From assembly GCF_055900595.2 (NCBI RefSeq), contig NZ_CM148325.1: 64,000 nt of DNA. One strand, given 5' to 3'. The position numbers and the translations under genes were made by a program. Shown in pieces: positions 38,568 to 44,659 of the stretch. How positions within the stretch are numbered: position 1 is the stretch's first letter; every line of letters begins with the position of its first letter. The notes beneath the pieces were generated by a model. It did no database searches and was not told where the DNA came from. It worked only from the letters and a program-made list of their open reading frames with translations.

Positions 38568-39709
38568 TCTTGTTCCAGCGCATTTACCCAGCCAGCATGC
38601 GGTTCCGCCAGTACCGGCGGCAGATCCTGCGGCATTCTTGATTGTAAAGTTTCACGCTGCCCGGCAGGCAGTTTTTGTGGATCGAGAACCGATGGATCAC
38701 CCCAGACAGCAGGATCTGCCTTACGTAGCTGTGCATCAGGTGAGAGCAGGAAATTGGCAACCACCTTCGCCGCAGCACTGGCATTCGCGTTGGCAGGAAC
38801 GGTGACGAAATGCACGTTGCCAATCATCCCCTCGCGAAAGCCAAAACTGTAACTGCTTGCTGGCAAATCGCCACTGGCGATTTTTTGCTGGGCATGTGCA
38901 GGATTAAAGGTCAGCGACAGGCGCAATGTGCCAGTTTTCAGCAGAGCATCCATCCGCGCGGGCGAAGGTGGGAAATCCTTTCCTTCGCGCCATAGATACG
39001 GATGCAGCGCATCAAGATATTGCCACAAGGGCGCAGTGATACGGGCGAAAGTCGCATCGTTCGGCGCTTTCTTTAATGCTGCGGGATCTGGCGTCAGCAT
39101 AATCAGTAACTGTTCAAGAAATGCGGTGCCAGTAAAGTCTGGCGGGCGCGGATAGGTAACCGTGCCAGGATTGGCTTTAGCGAATTCCAGTAAGGCTTGC
39201 GGTGTTTGTGGTGGCAGTGGCGTAACATCGCGGCGGGCGATAAACGTCAGTTGTGCGCCGCCCCAGGGCGATTCAGCCCCTTCTGTAGGCACTGAAAAAT
39301 CTTCCCGCACCGGCAGCTGTGTGTCGATATAGCGCCAGTTGGGCAGAGTCTCCGCCCAGCCTGTTTGTAATAAATTAGCCTCTTTTAAGGTGCGGAAGTT
39401 TTCGCCGTTCACCCAGAGCAGATCCACCGAACCGCCTGTTTTGCGCCCGGCAGCAGCTTCGGTCTGAATGCGCTTCACCGCGTCTGCGGCATCCGCCAGG
39501 CGGACAATCTTCAGGTTTATATCATAATGGGTTTTCATCTCGCCGCTAACCCAGTCGAGATAGCGGTTAATTGCGGTATCGCCGCCCCAGGCGTTAAACC
39601 AGACGGTTTGCCCTTTGGCCTCATTTTTAACTTCCTGCCAGTCACTGGCATGTGTTGCCAGAGAAAACAGCGATAACAATCCCAGCAACCACCCACAATG
39701 GCGCATCAT
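38540..39709 (-). CDS. ynjB: ABC transporter periplasmic substrate-binding protein
   Basis: 389-aa ORF with signal peptide; overlaps ynjC start. Confidence 0.85.
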   Translation of the reverse strand: MMRHCGWLLGLLSLFSLATHASDWQEVKNEAKGQTVWFNAWGGDTAINRYLDWVSGEMKTHYDINLKIVRLADAADAVKRIQTEAAAGRKTGGSVDLLWVNGENFRTLKEANLLQTGWAETLPNWRYIDTQLPVREDFSVPTEGAESPWGGAQLTFIARRDVTPLPPQTPQALLEFAKANPGTVTYPRPPDFTGTAFLEQLLIMLTPDPAALKKAPNDATFARITAPLWQYLDALHPYLWREGKDFPPSPARMDALLKTGTLRLSLTFNPAHAQQKIASGDLPASSYSFGFREGMIGNVHFVTVPANANASAAAKVVANFLLSPDAQLRKADPAVWGDPSVLDPQKLPAGQRETLQSRMPQDLPPVLAEPHAGWVNALEQEWLRRYGTH

Positions 39710-39936
39710 CTCTCCTTAGGAATAAAACTAGATGTATAATCTATTGTTTTTTCATTTGTTGTTTTGTTTGTGTTTTTTAGGGGCCACCAATAAGGCCCCT
39801 TGCGCAGTTCGAATTCTTCTGGTGCTATTTTTCCTCTTTTTTCTGTCTTCCTCCATTATTCTGTTTGACTCGATGTTCTGTATTACGAAATCGAATTAGA
39901 GGGCAGATACTTAGAAATTACCAGTTCAGCTTTCCA

Positions 39937-40722
39937 TTAGTTCCGGATGTTTAAACGTGATATGCGCGGAGCCCTTCTTAAAGTATCTGATACTGAACAT
40001 CTCATCTTCATAGCACTCTTTACCCTGAACAGACTGGATGTGCCATCCTGATGAATGGTTATGTTTTTCCCGTTGCCGGGGATGGGGGTGCCGCTGAACA
40101 GATGTAGCATTCTTTCCAGGTCGGCGAGTCGGTCAGTCTGTTGTCCGGTGATAAGATGAAATCCCCACCGGTCCCATCTCACCAGATTGTTGATAATGAT
40201 TTTACTTCCAAATTTACAGGGAGAGTTGGTTTTATAATTCCAGCTCAGTTCCCTGAAGACGTTAATCACTCCCCGCTTAAACACCTCATCCTTGTTCTGG
40301 TGCACTTGTTCAAATGTGCTCAGAATGTTCGCTTCGCTGATTTCCTGAAAATTATCGTACTCCAGTGAGCGGTACCATGTATCACGGGCCTGTGCATCCA
40401 TTAAGGAAAGCATCCCTGAACGTTGCATCAGGTCACGCCAGATTTCACGGTCAAGGTTGCGGGTAATGGCTTTCATTGCGGTTTCCTGTTTCTCCTTCAG
40501 CCAGCAGCCACAGCGAAAATCCTGTTTCATGGCCCAGTCCGGGGCGGTTTTACCTCCAATACTTTCCGTCAGAATTGAGATTTTAGCCAGTTGCCGGATA
40601 AGTGTGTCGATTGGCAACAGTGTACTCTTTCGTACAGCCAGAATGTGGCAGACTGAGGTGGAACAGATAACGTCCGTATGCCCGCTGACCACCTCCGGGC
40701 GGGAGAGTGTGGTATCTGACAT
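39937..40722 (-). CDS. Hypothetical protein, first gene of the island next to the core junction
   Basis: 261-aa ORF, separated from the upstream YeeW-like gene by a hairpin terminator; no family recognised from sequence alone. Confidence 0.45.
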   Translation of the reverse strand: MSDTTLSRPEVVSGHTDVICSTSVCHILAVRKSTLLPIDTLIRQLAKISILTESIGGKTAPDWAMKQDFRCGCWLKEKQETAMKAITRNLDREIWRDLMQRSGMLSLMDAQARDTWYRSLEYDNFQEISEANILSTFEQVHQNKDEVFKRGVINVFRELSWNYKTNSPCKFGSKIIINNLVRWDRWGFHLITGQQTDRLADLERMLHLFSGTPIPGNGKNITIHQDGTSSLFRVKSAMKMRCSVSDTLRRAPRISRLNIRN

Positions 40723-40756
40723 AATCGTTTTTCCTTTTTGCAGATAAATGAAAACG

Positions 40757-40785
40757 CCAGCTCTGTTCAGGCTGGCGTCAGGAGA
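40757..40785 (-). terminator. Rho-independent terminator after the YeeW-like gene
   Basis: Minus-strand hairpin acgccagcctgaacagagctggcgt followed by a T-rich tract. Confidence 0.45.
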
Positions 40786-40806
40786 ATGAAGTCTGGTGAG
40801 TGAGAT

Positions 40807-41232
40807 TCACCGGTTCTGGTGCAGAAGTTGCAGTTGGTGCAGGGTACGGATATCCTCCCTGGCCTGTTCGATACAGGGCAACAATGCTGCCGAATCCGTT
40901 TTATCCTCATCGTTGTCGAAAATAATTCCGGACCCGCAGTCGATATTGTCCTGCAGCCACGCAATGAGGATATCCAGCGCTGTTTCAGTGGTTAATGGCA
41001 TCACGCTCTGTATCACTGTATTGTCTTCCGGCAACTGATGAGAGCTGGCAGAAGTCGCCGGTGTTTCGGTAGCGTCACGTTCATCCACCACGCGGAGTGA
41101 ATAACCGTATTCAGCGACCTTGTTAATCAGTTCAGTGAGCTCAACACCATCAATGTCAACGACAATTCGCCCTATATTCAGTGCCTGTACGTTAACGCTG
41201 TCTGCTTCCAATGTCAGGGCCAGTTTCATCAT
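40807..41232 (-). CDS. YeeW-like protein following the CbtA-type toxin
   Basis: 141-aa acidic ORF whose start overlaps the toxin stop (ATGA); position matches yeeW in CP4-type islands. Confidence 0.6.
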
Positions 41233-41603
41233 TTCGCCTCCGGATACTTACCCAGGGTAATGTTATTTACCGTTCTGTAATTGTCGCGGGTCATCAGGCC
41301 GGTCGCCCTGCGAGCCCGGAGGATATCGATGCTGTTTATTAACTGAGAGCGGGTACAGGCGCTGAATCCCGGCTGGTCGGTACGCACCAGCGCGTATTTT
41401 TCCACGAGAAAGTTCACCGCATCACACAGTGAAATGCCTGCCTCAATATGCAGCTCAATCACGCGTTCATCCGCGAACGGTGTGTCATTCAGCGTAAGGC
41501 TGTAATGCTGGTCCAGTAACCGGGTGAGCAGTGTCTGCCAGATGGTGACGGGAGACGGGCAACACGATGCCTCCCGTACATGCGTGTCGGGTAATGTTTT
41601 CAT
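41229..41603 (-). CDS. CbtA/YkfI/YpjF-family toxin (type IV toxin-antitoxin)
   Basis: 124-aa [40 protein letters not shown] sequence typical of the CbtA family. Confidence 0.8.
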
Positions 41604-41692
41604 AATGAAGATTTTCCTGATATGCAGAGATAAAAAATGGGACAGTGGCGTGGTGAAAACACCAGGCCGGAGCAGAAGATTATTCTGATGAT

Positions 41693-42061
41693 TTACTTTT
41701 TCGTTTCGGGCGTCGGATAAACAGCCAGATAAACGTAACCACAGGAGCCGAGGGTGTCGGCTTCACAGGTCAGCCCCTTCGCATACAGTGTCACGGTATG
41801 CTGATGGCGGGGATTCAGTTCACCGCTGGTGAGCATGAGCTCCAGTTGTTTCATCGGCAGCGGAAAGGCCTGGTCCGGATGGTACGCATCCGCATCTCTG
41901 AACCGGCCTCTGATACCGGCACGGTCGGCAAGGTAATGCAACCGGTTACCCTCCTGCACCAGACGTGCCCCGAAACAGGGCGTCACGGTGCAGGGCAGTC
42001 CCCACCAGAGGCGGTCGTGATTGTCGTCGTGATGCGTTGTCCCGGGGAGTGTGTCTGACAC
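41693..42061 (-). CDS. CbeA/YafW/YfjZ-family antitoxin
   Basis: GTG start at 42061 (GAGGA upstream) gives 122 aa [38 protein letters not shown]...; ORF-track version carries an upstream extension. Confidence 0.8.
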
Positions 42062-42110
42062 GATAAAATCCTCACAGAAAATCGTTGAATGATAGTTTAA
42101 CTTTGACAGG

Positions 42111-42755
42111 TCAGCCGGTGCGCAGACCGGCTTCGGTGAAGGTGTATTCGTTGATGAGAAGGGCCTCATCCACAGGGGCATCTGAGGTCAGCCTGTTGTG
42201 CTCGTTTTCCAGTTGACGGTACAGCCATAAGGCCAGGTCGCGCAGGGCTTCGCTGACAGCGGCTTCCGCATCTGTTGTCATAGTCTGACCAGTCGGACTG
42301 TTCCGGGTAACAGTGATATCCATGCTGTACGGATGGCAGTAGCGTCCCCGGCGGTGGATTTCAGCCTGCAGTTGCCAGAAGTTACGCTTCTGCACCGCCT
42401 GCAGGGCATCCGCGATACGATGGAGTTCATGCTCCTGTGGGGCATACTTCCGGATTATCCGGGCTGTCGCCGGCTGCCAGTGCCAGCGTCCTTCAAAACA
42501 GGCTCCGTCCCCCTGGCTGCAGCATCCGCTGAACCAGATGCACGGCTCTTCCATAAACCTGCCGTTGCTGAGCCGGAAAACGCGCTGGCGGAGGTCAATT
42601 CCGAAAATGTCACAGACCGCCCTGAAGTCCTCATACACGTTTTCATACCAGTTGCTGTCAGCATGATGCTGACGGTACCCGTCGCGGGCTTTTCCCCGTA
42701 CCGGGCAGGAAAGTTCATCCAGCGTATACACTGTGATGGTGATAATGCTGCTCAT
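42111..42755 (-). CDS. Hypothetical cysteine-rich 214-aa protein inserted between the DUF987 and antitoxin genes
   Basis: ORF with RBS AAAGGGGA; contains CIWFSGCCSQGDGACFEGRWHW cluster; no family recognised. Confidence 0.5.
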   Translation of the reverse strand: MSSIITITVYTLDELSCPVRGKARDGYRQHHADSNWYENVYEDFRAVCDIFGIDLRQRVFRLSNGRFMEEPCIWFSGCCSQGDGACFEGRWHWQPATARIIRKYAPQEHELHRIADALQAVQKRNFWQLQAEIHRRGRYCHPYSMDITVTRNSPTGQTMTTDAEAAVSEALRDLALWLYRQLENEHNRLTSDAPVDEALLINEYTFTEAGLRTG

Positions 42756-42773
42756 CAGAATCCCCTTTCTGAT

Positions 42774-42995
42774 TCAGTTCAGGGTGACGCTCATCAGCCG
42801 GACATACGGGCCAAAACTGTCCTTACGGCGTTCAGCAAACACGGCCAGCACACCGGGAATATCCTGTACTTCACGACCGGTATACGTCTCAGCACTGCCG
42901 TGCCAGCGGTACTTACCGGTGCAGAACGGAAATAGACGGGATGCAGGATGCTGTTGGTGAATACGCATGGCTTCACCACGGGTGATAATTTTCAT
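42774..42995 (-). CDS. DUF987-family protein (YeeT/YkfH-like)
   Basis: 73-aa ORF MKIITRGEAMRIHQQHPASRLFPF; canonical position between radC-like and antitoxin genes. Confidence 0.7.
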   Translation of the reverse strand: MKIITRGEAMRIHQQHPASRLFPFCTGKYRWHGSAETYTGREVQDIPGVLAVFAERRKDSFGPYVRLMSVTLN

Positions 42996-43408
42996 AATGG
43001 GATACCTCTGAAGACAGAAGATAAAAGTGAAAACAGGTGTGATGTGGTTGTGACGGGTTAAAGCAGACCATGTTCGGCAAAGGAGAAAACCTGGCTGCCA
43101 CCGACTATCAGATGGTCCGGCACCCGGATATCCACCAGGCCCAGTGCCTGTACCAGACGTTCCGTGATAAGGCGGTCTGCCTTGCTGGGTGTGACTTCAC
43201 CGGACGGGTGATTGTGCGCCAGCACCACGGCAGCGGCATTGTGGTACAGGGCGCGTTTAATCACTTCCCGGGGATGGACTTCCGTGCGGTTGATGGTGCC
43301 GGTGAAGAGGGTTTCACCGGCAATCAGCTGATTCTGGTTGTTCAGATACAGCACCCGGAATTCTTCACGCTCCAGTCCCGCCATGTTCAGAATCAGCCAT
43401 TGTAGTGG

Positions 43409-44659
<1,251 letters not shown>

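Follow-up and report, generated by a model that had tools for sequence, protein, structure and literature searches.

Is the last open reading frame of a genomic island in Escherichia coli, which lies downstream of a toxin–antitoxin module and is separated from it by a hairpin with a T-rich tail, a gene of its own with its own transcription, or should this arrangement be explained in another way? The question is raised by a locus in a 64 000-nt stretch of chromosome (contig NZ_CM148325.1 of RefSeq assembly GCF_055900595.2; here called the window), for which an earlier note had proposed that a 261-aa ORF of unknown function, situated at the junction with the core genome, forms an independent transcription unit behind the terminator of the toxin genes. 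As an overall explanation we instead consider it probable that this ORF is a dead copy of a DUF4942 gene, resulting from a deletion and a 3′ fusion, which lies behind a conserved terminator-like element ending the toxin–antitoxin operon, with intact copies of the gene being expressed by way of leaky read-through.

The island next to ynjB

The window derives from the E. coli chromosome, with the core genes ynjE, ynjD, ynjC and ynjB found on the minus strand up to position 39709, and to the right of ynjB lies a CP4-type island, the genes of which are also on the minus strand and read towards ynjB. In the order of the island these are an antirestriction gene, a RadC/JAB gene (IS-interrupted), a DUF987 gene, a 214-aa ORF (42111–42755), the gene for the CbeA/YeeU antitoxin (CbeA domain within 41693–42181), that for the CbtA toxin (41229–41603), a 141-aa ‘YeeW-like’ ORF (40807–41232) and finally the 261-aa ORF. 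The genes upstream of the latter thus form the same neighborhood as that of the type IV CbtA/CbeA (YeeV/YeeU) module of CP4-44-type prophages, together with YeeS (RadC), YeeT (DUF987) and YeeW. K-12 CP4-44, however, has no DUF4942 gene, DUF4942 being the family of the 261-aa ORF (see below) and an extra distal gene outside the characterized toxin–antitoxin pair. The K-12 gene yoeF was considered as a possible DUF4942 remnant and was rejected; it is unrelated, K-12 lacks the locus, and transcript maps of K-12 are therefore of no help here. Literature searches on yoeF/yeeW and on cbtA together with terminators gave nothing relevant.

The 141-aa ORF directly upstream was found to be a chimera, in which about 55 codons of DUF5983 (YeeW), a 76-bp non-homologous insert (40998–41073) and a 65-aa DUF957 domain follow each other in frame. 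Judged by the BLAST break points against E2348/69, the 76 bp stand in for ≈350 bp. Pfam recognizes the DUF5983_N domain in residues 5–58 only, and PGAP annotates two features in its place, a CDS for DUF957 and a partial pseudogene of DUF5983.

Two further features of the island can be mentioned. A 1257-bp IS3-family element (43402–44658), having an HTH_Tnp_1 ORF at 44275–44622 and an rve ORF at 43409–44155, both on the minus strand, interrupts the RadC/JAB (YeeS-like) gene, and is missing from the otherwise identical islands of strains LH10-b-1 and Ch1. The 214-aa ORF, also on the minus strand, between DUF987 and the antitoxin gave no match in Pfam or NCBIfam, and an ORF of the same length, again without a family hit on record, is also found inside the toxin–antitoxin module of Salmonella (loci L016–L018, 4153–4797).

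Homology to K-12 ends at 39722, thereby defining a core junction (39722/39723) that precedes the ynjB ATG by 13 nt and is located 7 nt inside the 3′ end of ynjA. The 261-aa ORF is hence the last ORF of the island, as had been implied, with the junction itself found ≈200 bp beyond the gene. Position 39916 was also considered as the island edge and was dismissed, as the break seen there is due to an IS2 insertion in strain Ch1. Between the pseudogene described below and the core junction is a terminal tail of the island (39723–39925), of which ≈175 bp (39725–39898) share 72–76% identity with the unannotated ends of CP4-type islands in about 1100 E. coli genomes. Those other islands carry ParDE or AbiE (AbiEii/DUF6088) cargo between DUF4942 and the terminal sequence. 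Since the tail is homologous to termini lying beyond such cargo, the simplest reading is that a deletion joined the 3′ end of the DUF4942 gene to the island terminus. The segment 39725–39898 also contains a GC hairpin, AGGGGCC...GGCCCCT (39780–39803), with a flanking T-run on the plus strand. The genes ynjA and ydjXYZ are not present in the window, and ynjBCD, directly downstream of the last genes of the island and co-oriented with them, are thus severed from the rest of the ydjX–ynjD row of K-12.

The 261-codon frame is a decayed DUF4942 gene

The ORF of the earlier note was exact, spanning 39937–40722 on the minus strand from an ATG start, and its homology could be readily assigned. It matches the DUF4942 family (PF13708) with 151 bits and an E-value of 4.1e-44, at a Pfam gathering threshold of 25 bits; what had been described as being of unknown function hence belongs to a named family, the biochemistry of which is uncharacterized. 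The match comprises profile positions 1–137 out of 190 and stops at residue 225, not reaching full length, and the intact protein of E2348/69 spans positions 1–190.

The cause was evident from DNA alignments, showing that one nucleotide present in every intact homolog is absent between 40043 and 40044 (minus strand), where the GGATGA[T/C]CACAT of the homologs has become GGATGGCACAT in the window. Codons 227–261 of the ORF are consequently out of frame, and BLASTP identity collapses past residue 226. The true C-terminal frame persists as a remnant at 39926–40042 on the minus strand, translating to HIQSVQGKECYEDEMFSIRYFKKGSAHITFKHPELMES followed by a stop (TGA, 39926–39928), which corresponds to the conserved block of residues 228–262 in the intact protein and keeps the invariant residue H254. 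This remnant stops ≈17 codons early, its 3′ end being swapped for unrelated sequence: intact DUF4942 proteins have tails of the form ...RKPELVDRLNDIIAKHYPxxL, and with the homology gone beyond ‘PEL’, the last ≈17 codons have been lost as well. The pseudogene as defined by Pfam, PGAP and alignment to intact 280–284-aa copies therefore extends over 39926–40722 on the minus strand, and the frame at 39937–40722 is the mechanical ORF within it.

Frameshift and 3′ truncation together cost 54 of 280 residues. Four residues are invariant in an alignment of 68 family sequences (W95, D201, H254 and N267), of which the 261-aa product has two, being without H254 and N267, and the conserved P126, D216 and R218 are substituted in the window copy. 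Over the first 226 residues, the identity to the E2348/69 protein is 78%. With the deletion at 40043/40044 and the replaced 3′ end, the copy in the window does not have an uninterrupted frame colinear with the members of the family. Judged by these alignments the 261-codon frame, taken as a gene in the earlier note, is the decayed and dead copy of an island gene of wide distribution, i.e. a frameshifted and 3′-truncated pseudogene of the 280-aa DUF4942 family. Its status as a pseudogene is not new, as RefSeq has already flagged it: an identical sequence in strain LH10-b-1, equivalent to 39926–40722 of the window, is annotated by PGAP as ‘DUF4942 domain-containing protein, frameshifted’.

Both lesions were found in four of the four other genomes inspected that have an island at ynjB (LH10-b-1, F11, Ch1 and B771), and are thus older than the spread of this island variant. 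The dN/dS ratios among intact E. coli paralogs, 0.08–0.24, show that DUF4942 is a real protein under selection, and those of the window copy (0.12–0.24) are only marginally above those of intact pairs; either the decay happened recently or the test has little power.

Some observations on other decayed copies were also made. The ynjB-site copies of F11 and B771 have a lesioned 3′ half identical to that of 39926–40722 in the window, together with divergent 5′ parts, the divergence affecting the initial ≈450 nt of the F11 copy and, in B771, the region of the hairpin, which suggests gene conversion or recombination among island paralogs within a genome. Several independent clusters of 261-aa DUF4942 proteins exist (P0069, P0072, P0073, P0094 and P0113), two of them (P0073 and P0113) being −1 frameshift alleles that shift near residue 219, compared to residue 226 in the window. 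As a −1 frameshift anywhere before the stop that these alleles share in the alternative frame will result in 261 aa, the inactivation of DUF4942 is a recurring event.

A terminator-like hairpin upstream of the DUF4942 start

We then consider the element by which the toxin module was said to be separated from the last ORF. A GC-rich stem-loop is found on the minus strand at 40754–40778, having a stem of 8–9 bp in which ACGCCAGC (40778–40771) pairs with GCUGGCGU (40761–40754) around a 9-nt loop (40762–40770), with the innermost pair of the stem being a C/A mismatch in the window copy. It is followed without any spacing by a U-rich tract, UUUCAUUUAUCUG (40741–40753, minus strand), within which UUUCAUUUA occupies 40753–40745, and T-rich tails are conserved across loci. 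Moving 3′ from the stem one thus finds UUUUCAUUUAUCUG (to 40741), the Shine-Dalgarno sequence AAGGAA of the DUF4942 gene (40736–40731, 8 nt before the start codon, with AAGGA kept in homologous upstream regions) and the ATG at 40722. The distance from the U-tract to the Shine-Dalgarno sequence is about 9–20 nt and that to the ATG 23 nt, with the hairpin and its U-tract located 34 nt upstream of the ATG. Both parts of the ‘hairpin + T-tract’ earlier placed at 40757–40785 are accordingly real and on the correct side for a minus-strand transcript, with that range covering most of the stem and not the U-tract. The hairpin also lies directly downstream of the gene named as YeeW-like, the stop codon of which is 28 nt before the hairpin, with that gene being the DUF5983-N/DUF957 chimera described above.

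The window hairpin folds with −16.5 kcal/mol (z −4.6) and is followed by UUUUCAUUU, and none of 200 shuffled sequences folded as well. This gives a stable GC-rich stem-loop with an immediate U-tract on the transcribed strand, as is characteristic of a terminator, with a stem weakened in comparison to the canonical copy (−20.8 kcal/mol). A terminator consensus scan found the intact E2348/69 copy (11 pairs, 7 G–C pairs, loop of 5) and missed that of the window because the C/A mismatch gives a 9-nt loop where the limit is 8, which was the sole point of failure. With Rho-independent terminators the element shares the GC-rich stem of 8–11 bp, the short loop, the immediate 3′ U-tract, the position 28 nt past a stop codon and, in many lineages here, an A-rich 5′ flank that pairs with the U-tract. 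Unlike a simple terminator, it is located only ≈20 nt from the Shine-Dalgarno sequence of the next gene and travels with that gene, which would make it more attenuator-like.

Conservation and covariation of the hairpin

As had been noticed, the toxin module and the final ORF of the island are indeed parted by a terminator-like hairpin plus U-tract, an arrangement conserved throughout Enterobacterales. A locus search with a 7-sequence alignment gave 79 loci from different Enterobacterales, to which those of E. coli and Salmonella were added, and in 81 of 85 loci a GC-rich hairpin with a T-rich tail was found between the toxin–antitoxin module and DUF4942, in 64 distinct hairpin sequences. It lies 7–40 nt, mostly 20–30 nt, before the DUF4942 ATG. 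Terminator-like hairpins were present in 61 of 71 distinct regions upstream of DUF4942 (86%), compared to 36 of 762 regions upstream of control ORFs at the same loci (4.7%).

In an alignment of 35 sequences, 94.8% of cells pair, a percentage that is inflated by pre-selection of the sequences with a hairpin finder using a 6-nt loop, and eight of the 12 pairs have changed on both sides; slid controls of the 3′ partner pair at 30–46%, and none of 500 shuffles reached the observed values. This pre-selection has no bearing on the diversity of pair types or on the enrichment of 86% over 4.7%. G–U and U–G pairs are frequent in one orientation (e.g. GU in 14 and UG in 10 of the 35 sequences), pointing to selection on a sense-strand RNA and not on a DNA palindrome. 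Pairing was retained also where the stems are wholly different between lineages, as exemplified by six pairs of 5′ and 3′ arms: CGCCAGCC with GGCUGGCG, CGCCGGUC with GACCGGCG, GGCCCGCA with UGCGGGCC, CACCCGCC with GGCGGGUG, CUCUGCC with GGCAGAG, and GCGCCAUCC with GGAUGGCGC.

The gene immediately upstream of the hairpin varies, being that for DUF957, DUF5983, CbtA or, when the toxin–antitoxin order is reversed, YeeU, and CbtA or CbeA is encoded within ≈3.5 kb upstream of DUF4942 in about 74 of the 79 enterobacterial loci. In two loci (L013 and L033) the hairpin still adjoins DUF4942, with the nearest upstream gene on the same strand being ≈430 nt away. In the intact E. coli copies inspected, DUF4942 always follows DUF957 with a spacer of 84 bp. 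The window copy shares this position and this spacer with the stand-alone enterobacterial PF13708 proteins, and differs from them in its frameshift and in the loss of ≈54 residues at the C-terminus of the domain.

Searching 39600–43500 with the covariance models of Rfam 15 gave no match at E-values up to 1. A covariance model of our own (R1) scored Salmonella- and Mixta-type copies strongly and those of E. coli weakly (16 bits for locus L005, none for the window), and was left out of the counts. Taken together, the hairpin looks like a conserved intrinsic terminator or attenuator, and the family-wide covariation of this terminator-like element, combined with the tight coupling between the toxin–antitoxin module and DUF4942, is the only mildly new element of the present analysis.

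Read-through, own promoter or another role of the hairpin

The 260 nt upstream of DUF4942, scanned in the window as well as for five intact copies from E. coli, contained no sigma-70-like site with at least eight of 12 matches, the scan being blind to weak or non-sigma-70 promoters. Moreover, as the U-tract ends ≈9 nt before the Shine-Dalgarno sequence, there is no room for a promoter. The proposed independent transcription unit is hence left without a recognizable promoter, both in these 260 nt and in the gap of ≈20 nt, as far as can be read from the DNA, and DUF4942 would thus probably be made from read-through transcripts, by attenuation. Leaky read-through accordingly seems more likely than an independent transcription unit. 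In the window itself little depends on this question, given that the gene behind the hairpin is dead and the stem weakened.

That the ORF could nonetheless be an intact and independently transcribed gene, insulated by the terminator upstream and having its own promoter, is in our view quite unlikely. The hairpin is indeed real and conserved, and the gene has a good Shine-Dalgarno sequence and ATG; the lost 54 of 280 residues, however, include the invariant H254 and N267, nothing promoter-like is seen in the window or in the E. coli copies, and only ≈9 nt separate the U-tract from the Shine-Dalgarno sequence. Promoters are suggested further away in the family, with a distant homolog on an IncP-like plasmid having TTGTCA-N17-TATAAT, and one enterobacterial sub-lineage (Buttiauxella-type) having TTCCCA-N16-CATAAT, a site with nine of 12 matches whose −10 element abuts the stem. 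The latter could be a promoter, and such transcripts would lack the 5′ arm and thereby escape termination, but the positions of ‘CATAAT’ covary (UA, AU and UG in columns 7 and 32), as expected for a helix and not for a −10 box. As a general −10 box, ‘GCATAAT’ was discarded, since the T of position 6 is not conserved and the positions covary as base pairs.

There is also some, albeit low, probability that the hairpin is a regulated leader of DUF4942, i.e. a conditional attenuator at which a factor or signal relieves termination, making DUF4942 a switched third component of the CbtA/CbeA system. The distance from the hairpin to the ATG is short and fixed, mostly 20–30 nt, whereas both the identity of the upstream gene and the distance to it vary, and in L013 and L033 the hairpin was retained beside DUF4942 after insertion of two genes upstream, a finding no less compatible with a leader or attenuator belonging to DUF4942 than with a plain terminator at an operon end. 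The location of DUF4942 downstream of CbtA/CbeA in ≈74 of 79 enterobacterial loci also agrees with a third component, but distant DUF4942 homologs on plasmids, on a Tn7-like element and on an integrative and conjugative element (ICE) are found without CbtA/CbeA. Neither a conserved anti-terminator nor an upstream leader was seen in the E. coli copies, where the DUF957 stop codon is 28 nt from the stem, and no Rfam family matched.

Very improbable, finally, is that the inverted repeat works as DNA and not as an RNA terminator, being either the operator of a dimeric protein or a site that serves recombination or bounds a cassette. This would be compatible with a perfect palindrome of 8–11 bp that changes symmetrically between lineages and bounds a variable upstream module from DUF4942. 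An operator would conserve its sequence, though, and the stem exists in 64 distinct versions; the G–U and U–G pairs, furthermore, would be mismatched when read from the other strand or in a DNA duplex, and the T-tract is found on the sense strand only.

The reading that we favor, that of a dead gene copy behind a terminator-like element, may be summarized mechanistically as follows. DUF4942 is the conserved distal gene of a RadC–(YeeT)–CbeA–CbtA–(YeeW)–(DUF957) module in islands of the CP4/P4-integrase type in Enterobacterales, and the toxin–antitoxin operon ends in the hairpin with its U-tract, a conserved RNA element resembling a Rho-independent terminator, which probably stops most transcripts of the operon. 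In intact islands, where DUF4942 seems to lack a promoter within the short gap, low-level expression would result from read-through of the leaky terminator, in other words from attenuation. In the island next to ynjB, 13 nt upstream of this gene, the loss of 1 nt after codon 226 and a second deletion, fusing the 3′ end to the terminal sequence of the island with removal of the last ≈17 codons and any later cargo, would then have left the arrangement in the window as a relic.

The DUF4942 family and its link to DNA methyltransferases

Of 5426 complete E. coli genomes, 4071 (≈75%) carry genes for DUF4942 proteins, with a median of two copies and 8722 places in all, and intact copies encoding 280–284 aa (in E2348/69 at ≈2981790–2983000 of NZ_CP059840.2, O157:H7, H10407, BL21 and others) occur across Enterobacterales. 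The ORF is thus present in related islands, contrary to the absence that the earlier note named as grounds for its refutation. In a library of 1.8 billion proteins the family makes up 2229 clusters at 50% identity. It has earlier been named L0010 in the LEE-adjacent element of O157:H7, orf56 in the SRL PAI of Shigella, and Aec79 (PMC6980539), and in our literature search DUF4942 was mentioned in annotation tables only.

The majority of the members are stand-alone proteins of 255–290 aa. In a minority of relatives, having 460–468 aa, DUF4942 is N-terminal and followed by a C-terminal class I methyltransferase domain with EPSAGxGA and NPPF motifs. The ‘DNA methyltransferase’ group PHROG 6263 matches DUF4942 across its N-terminal region, and in these N6-adenine DNA methyltransferases of phages and plasmids (460–468 aa) the DUF4942 domain is homologous to that of the island protein, with E-values of 1e-35 to 1e-38. 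Unlike those enzymes, the island protein has no methyltransferase domain and no EPSAGxGA or NPPF motif. In the 280-aa protein the SAM-binding motif I and the catalytic (D/N)PP(Y/F) motif IV are absent and Pfam sees DUF4942 alone, and no methyltransferase is annotated by PGAP in the sequenced part of this island.

An AlphaFold2 model of the protein was confident (pLDDT 89.6). Structure searches with it revealed no solved relative of DUF4942, with BFVD giving family members only, and DUF4942 had no match in NCBIfam or in a PDB sequence search. The HMMs of PADLOC 2.0 matched neither DUF4942, DUF957 nor DUF5983. An HNH-like beta-beta-alpha site around H254/N267 was considered and dropped, having the wrong spacing and no structural match.

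Because of the methyltransferase fusions, our best guess is that DUF4942 has a DNA-directed role, derived from or cooperating with the N6-adenine DNA methyltransferases of mobile elements. The more far-reaching idea, that the hairpin is an attenuator gating the stand-alone N-terminal, possibly target-recognizing, domain of a methyltransferase as a linked third component of CbtA/CbeA on CP4-type islands, we regard as improbable. If the attenuator reading were true, the toxin–antitoxin module and DUF4942 would make up one regulated and undescribed unit, with DUF4942 perhaps directed at DNA as, e.g., a factor for establishment or against restriction; even then, the window would hold a dead copy only.

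The window itself, with a pseudogene flagged by RefSeq and a standard-looking terminator, matters little. The family is of wider interest, being among the most widespread uncharacterized island genes of E. coli, often in several copies, and nearly always coupled to CbtA/CbeA across Enterobacterales. The covarying hairpin, absent from Rfam, gives a testable handle on DUF4942 expression, and the link to NPPF-type methyltransferases of mobile elements provides a lead on its function.

The IncP-like plasmid carries its distant DUF4942 homolog next to KorB, with a C5 methylase two genes away, and further distant homologs were found in the Tn7-like element and in the ICE, there adjoining KfrA and an integrase. 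On the IncP-like plasmid contig (L015, 3600–3737) the homolog is preceded by the consensus promoter mentioned above, with the palindrome TTGGCAATTGTGCCAA in place of the terminator hairpin, and is followed by a 126-aa ORF and the C5 DNA methylase gene.
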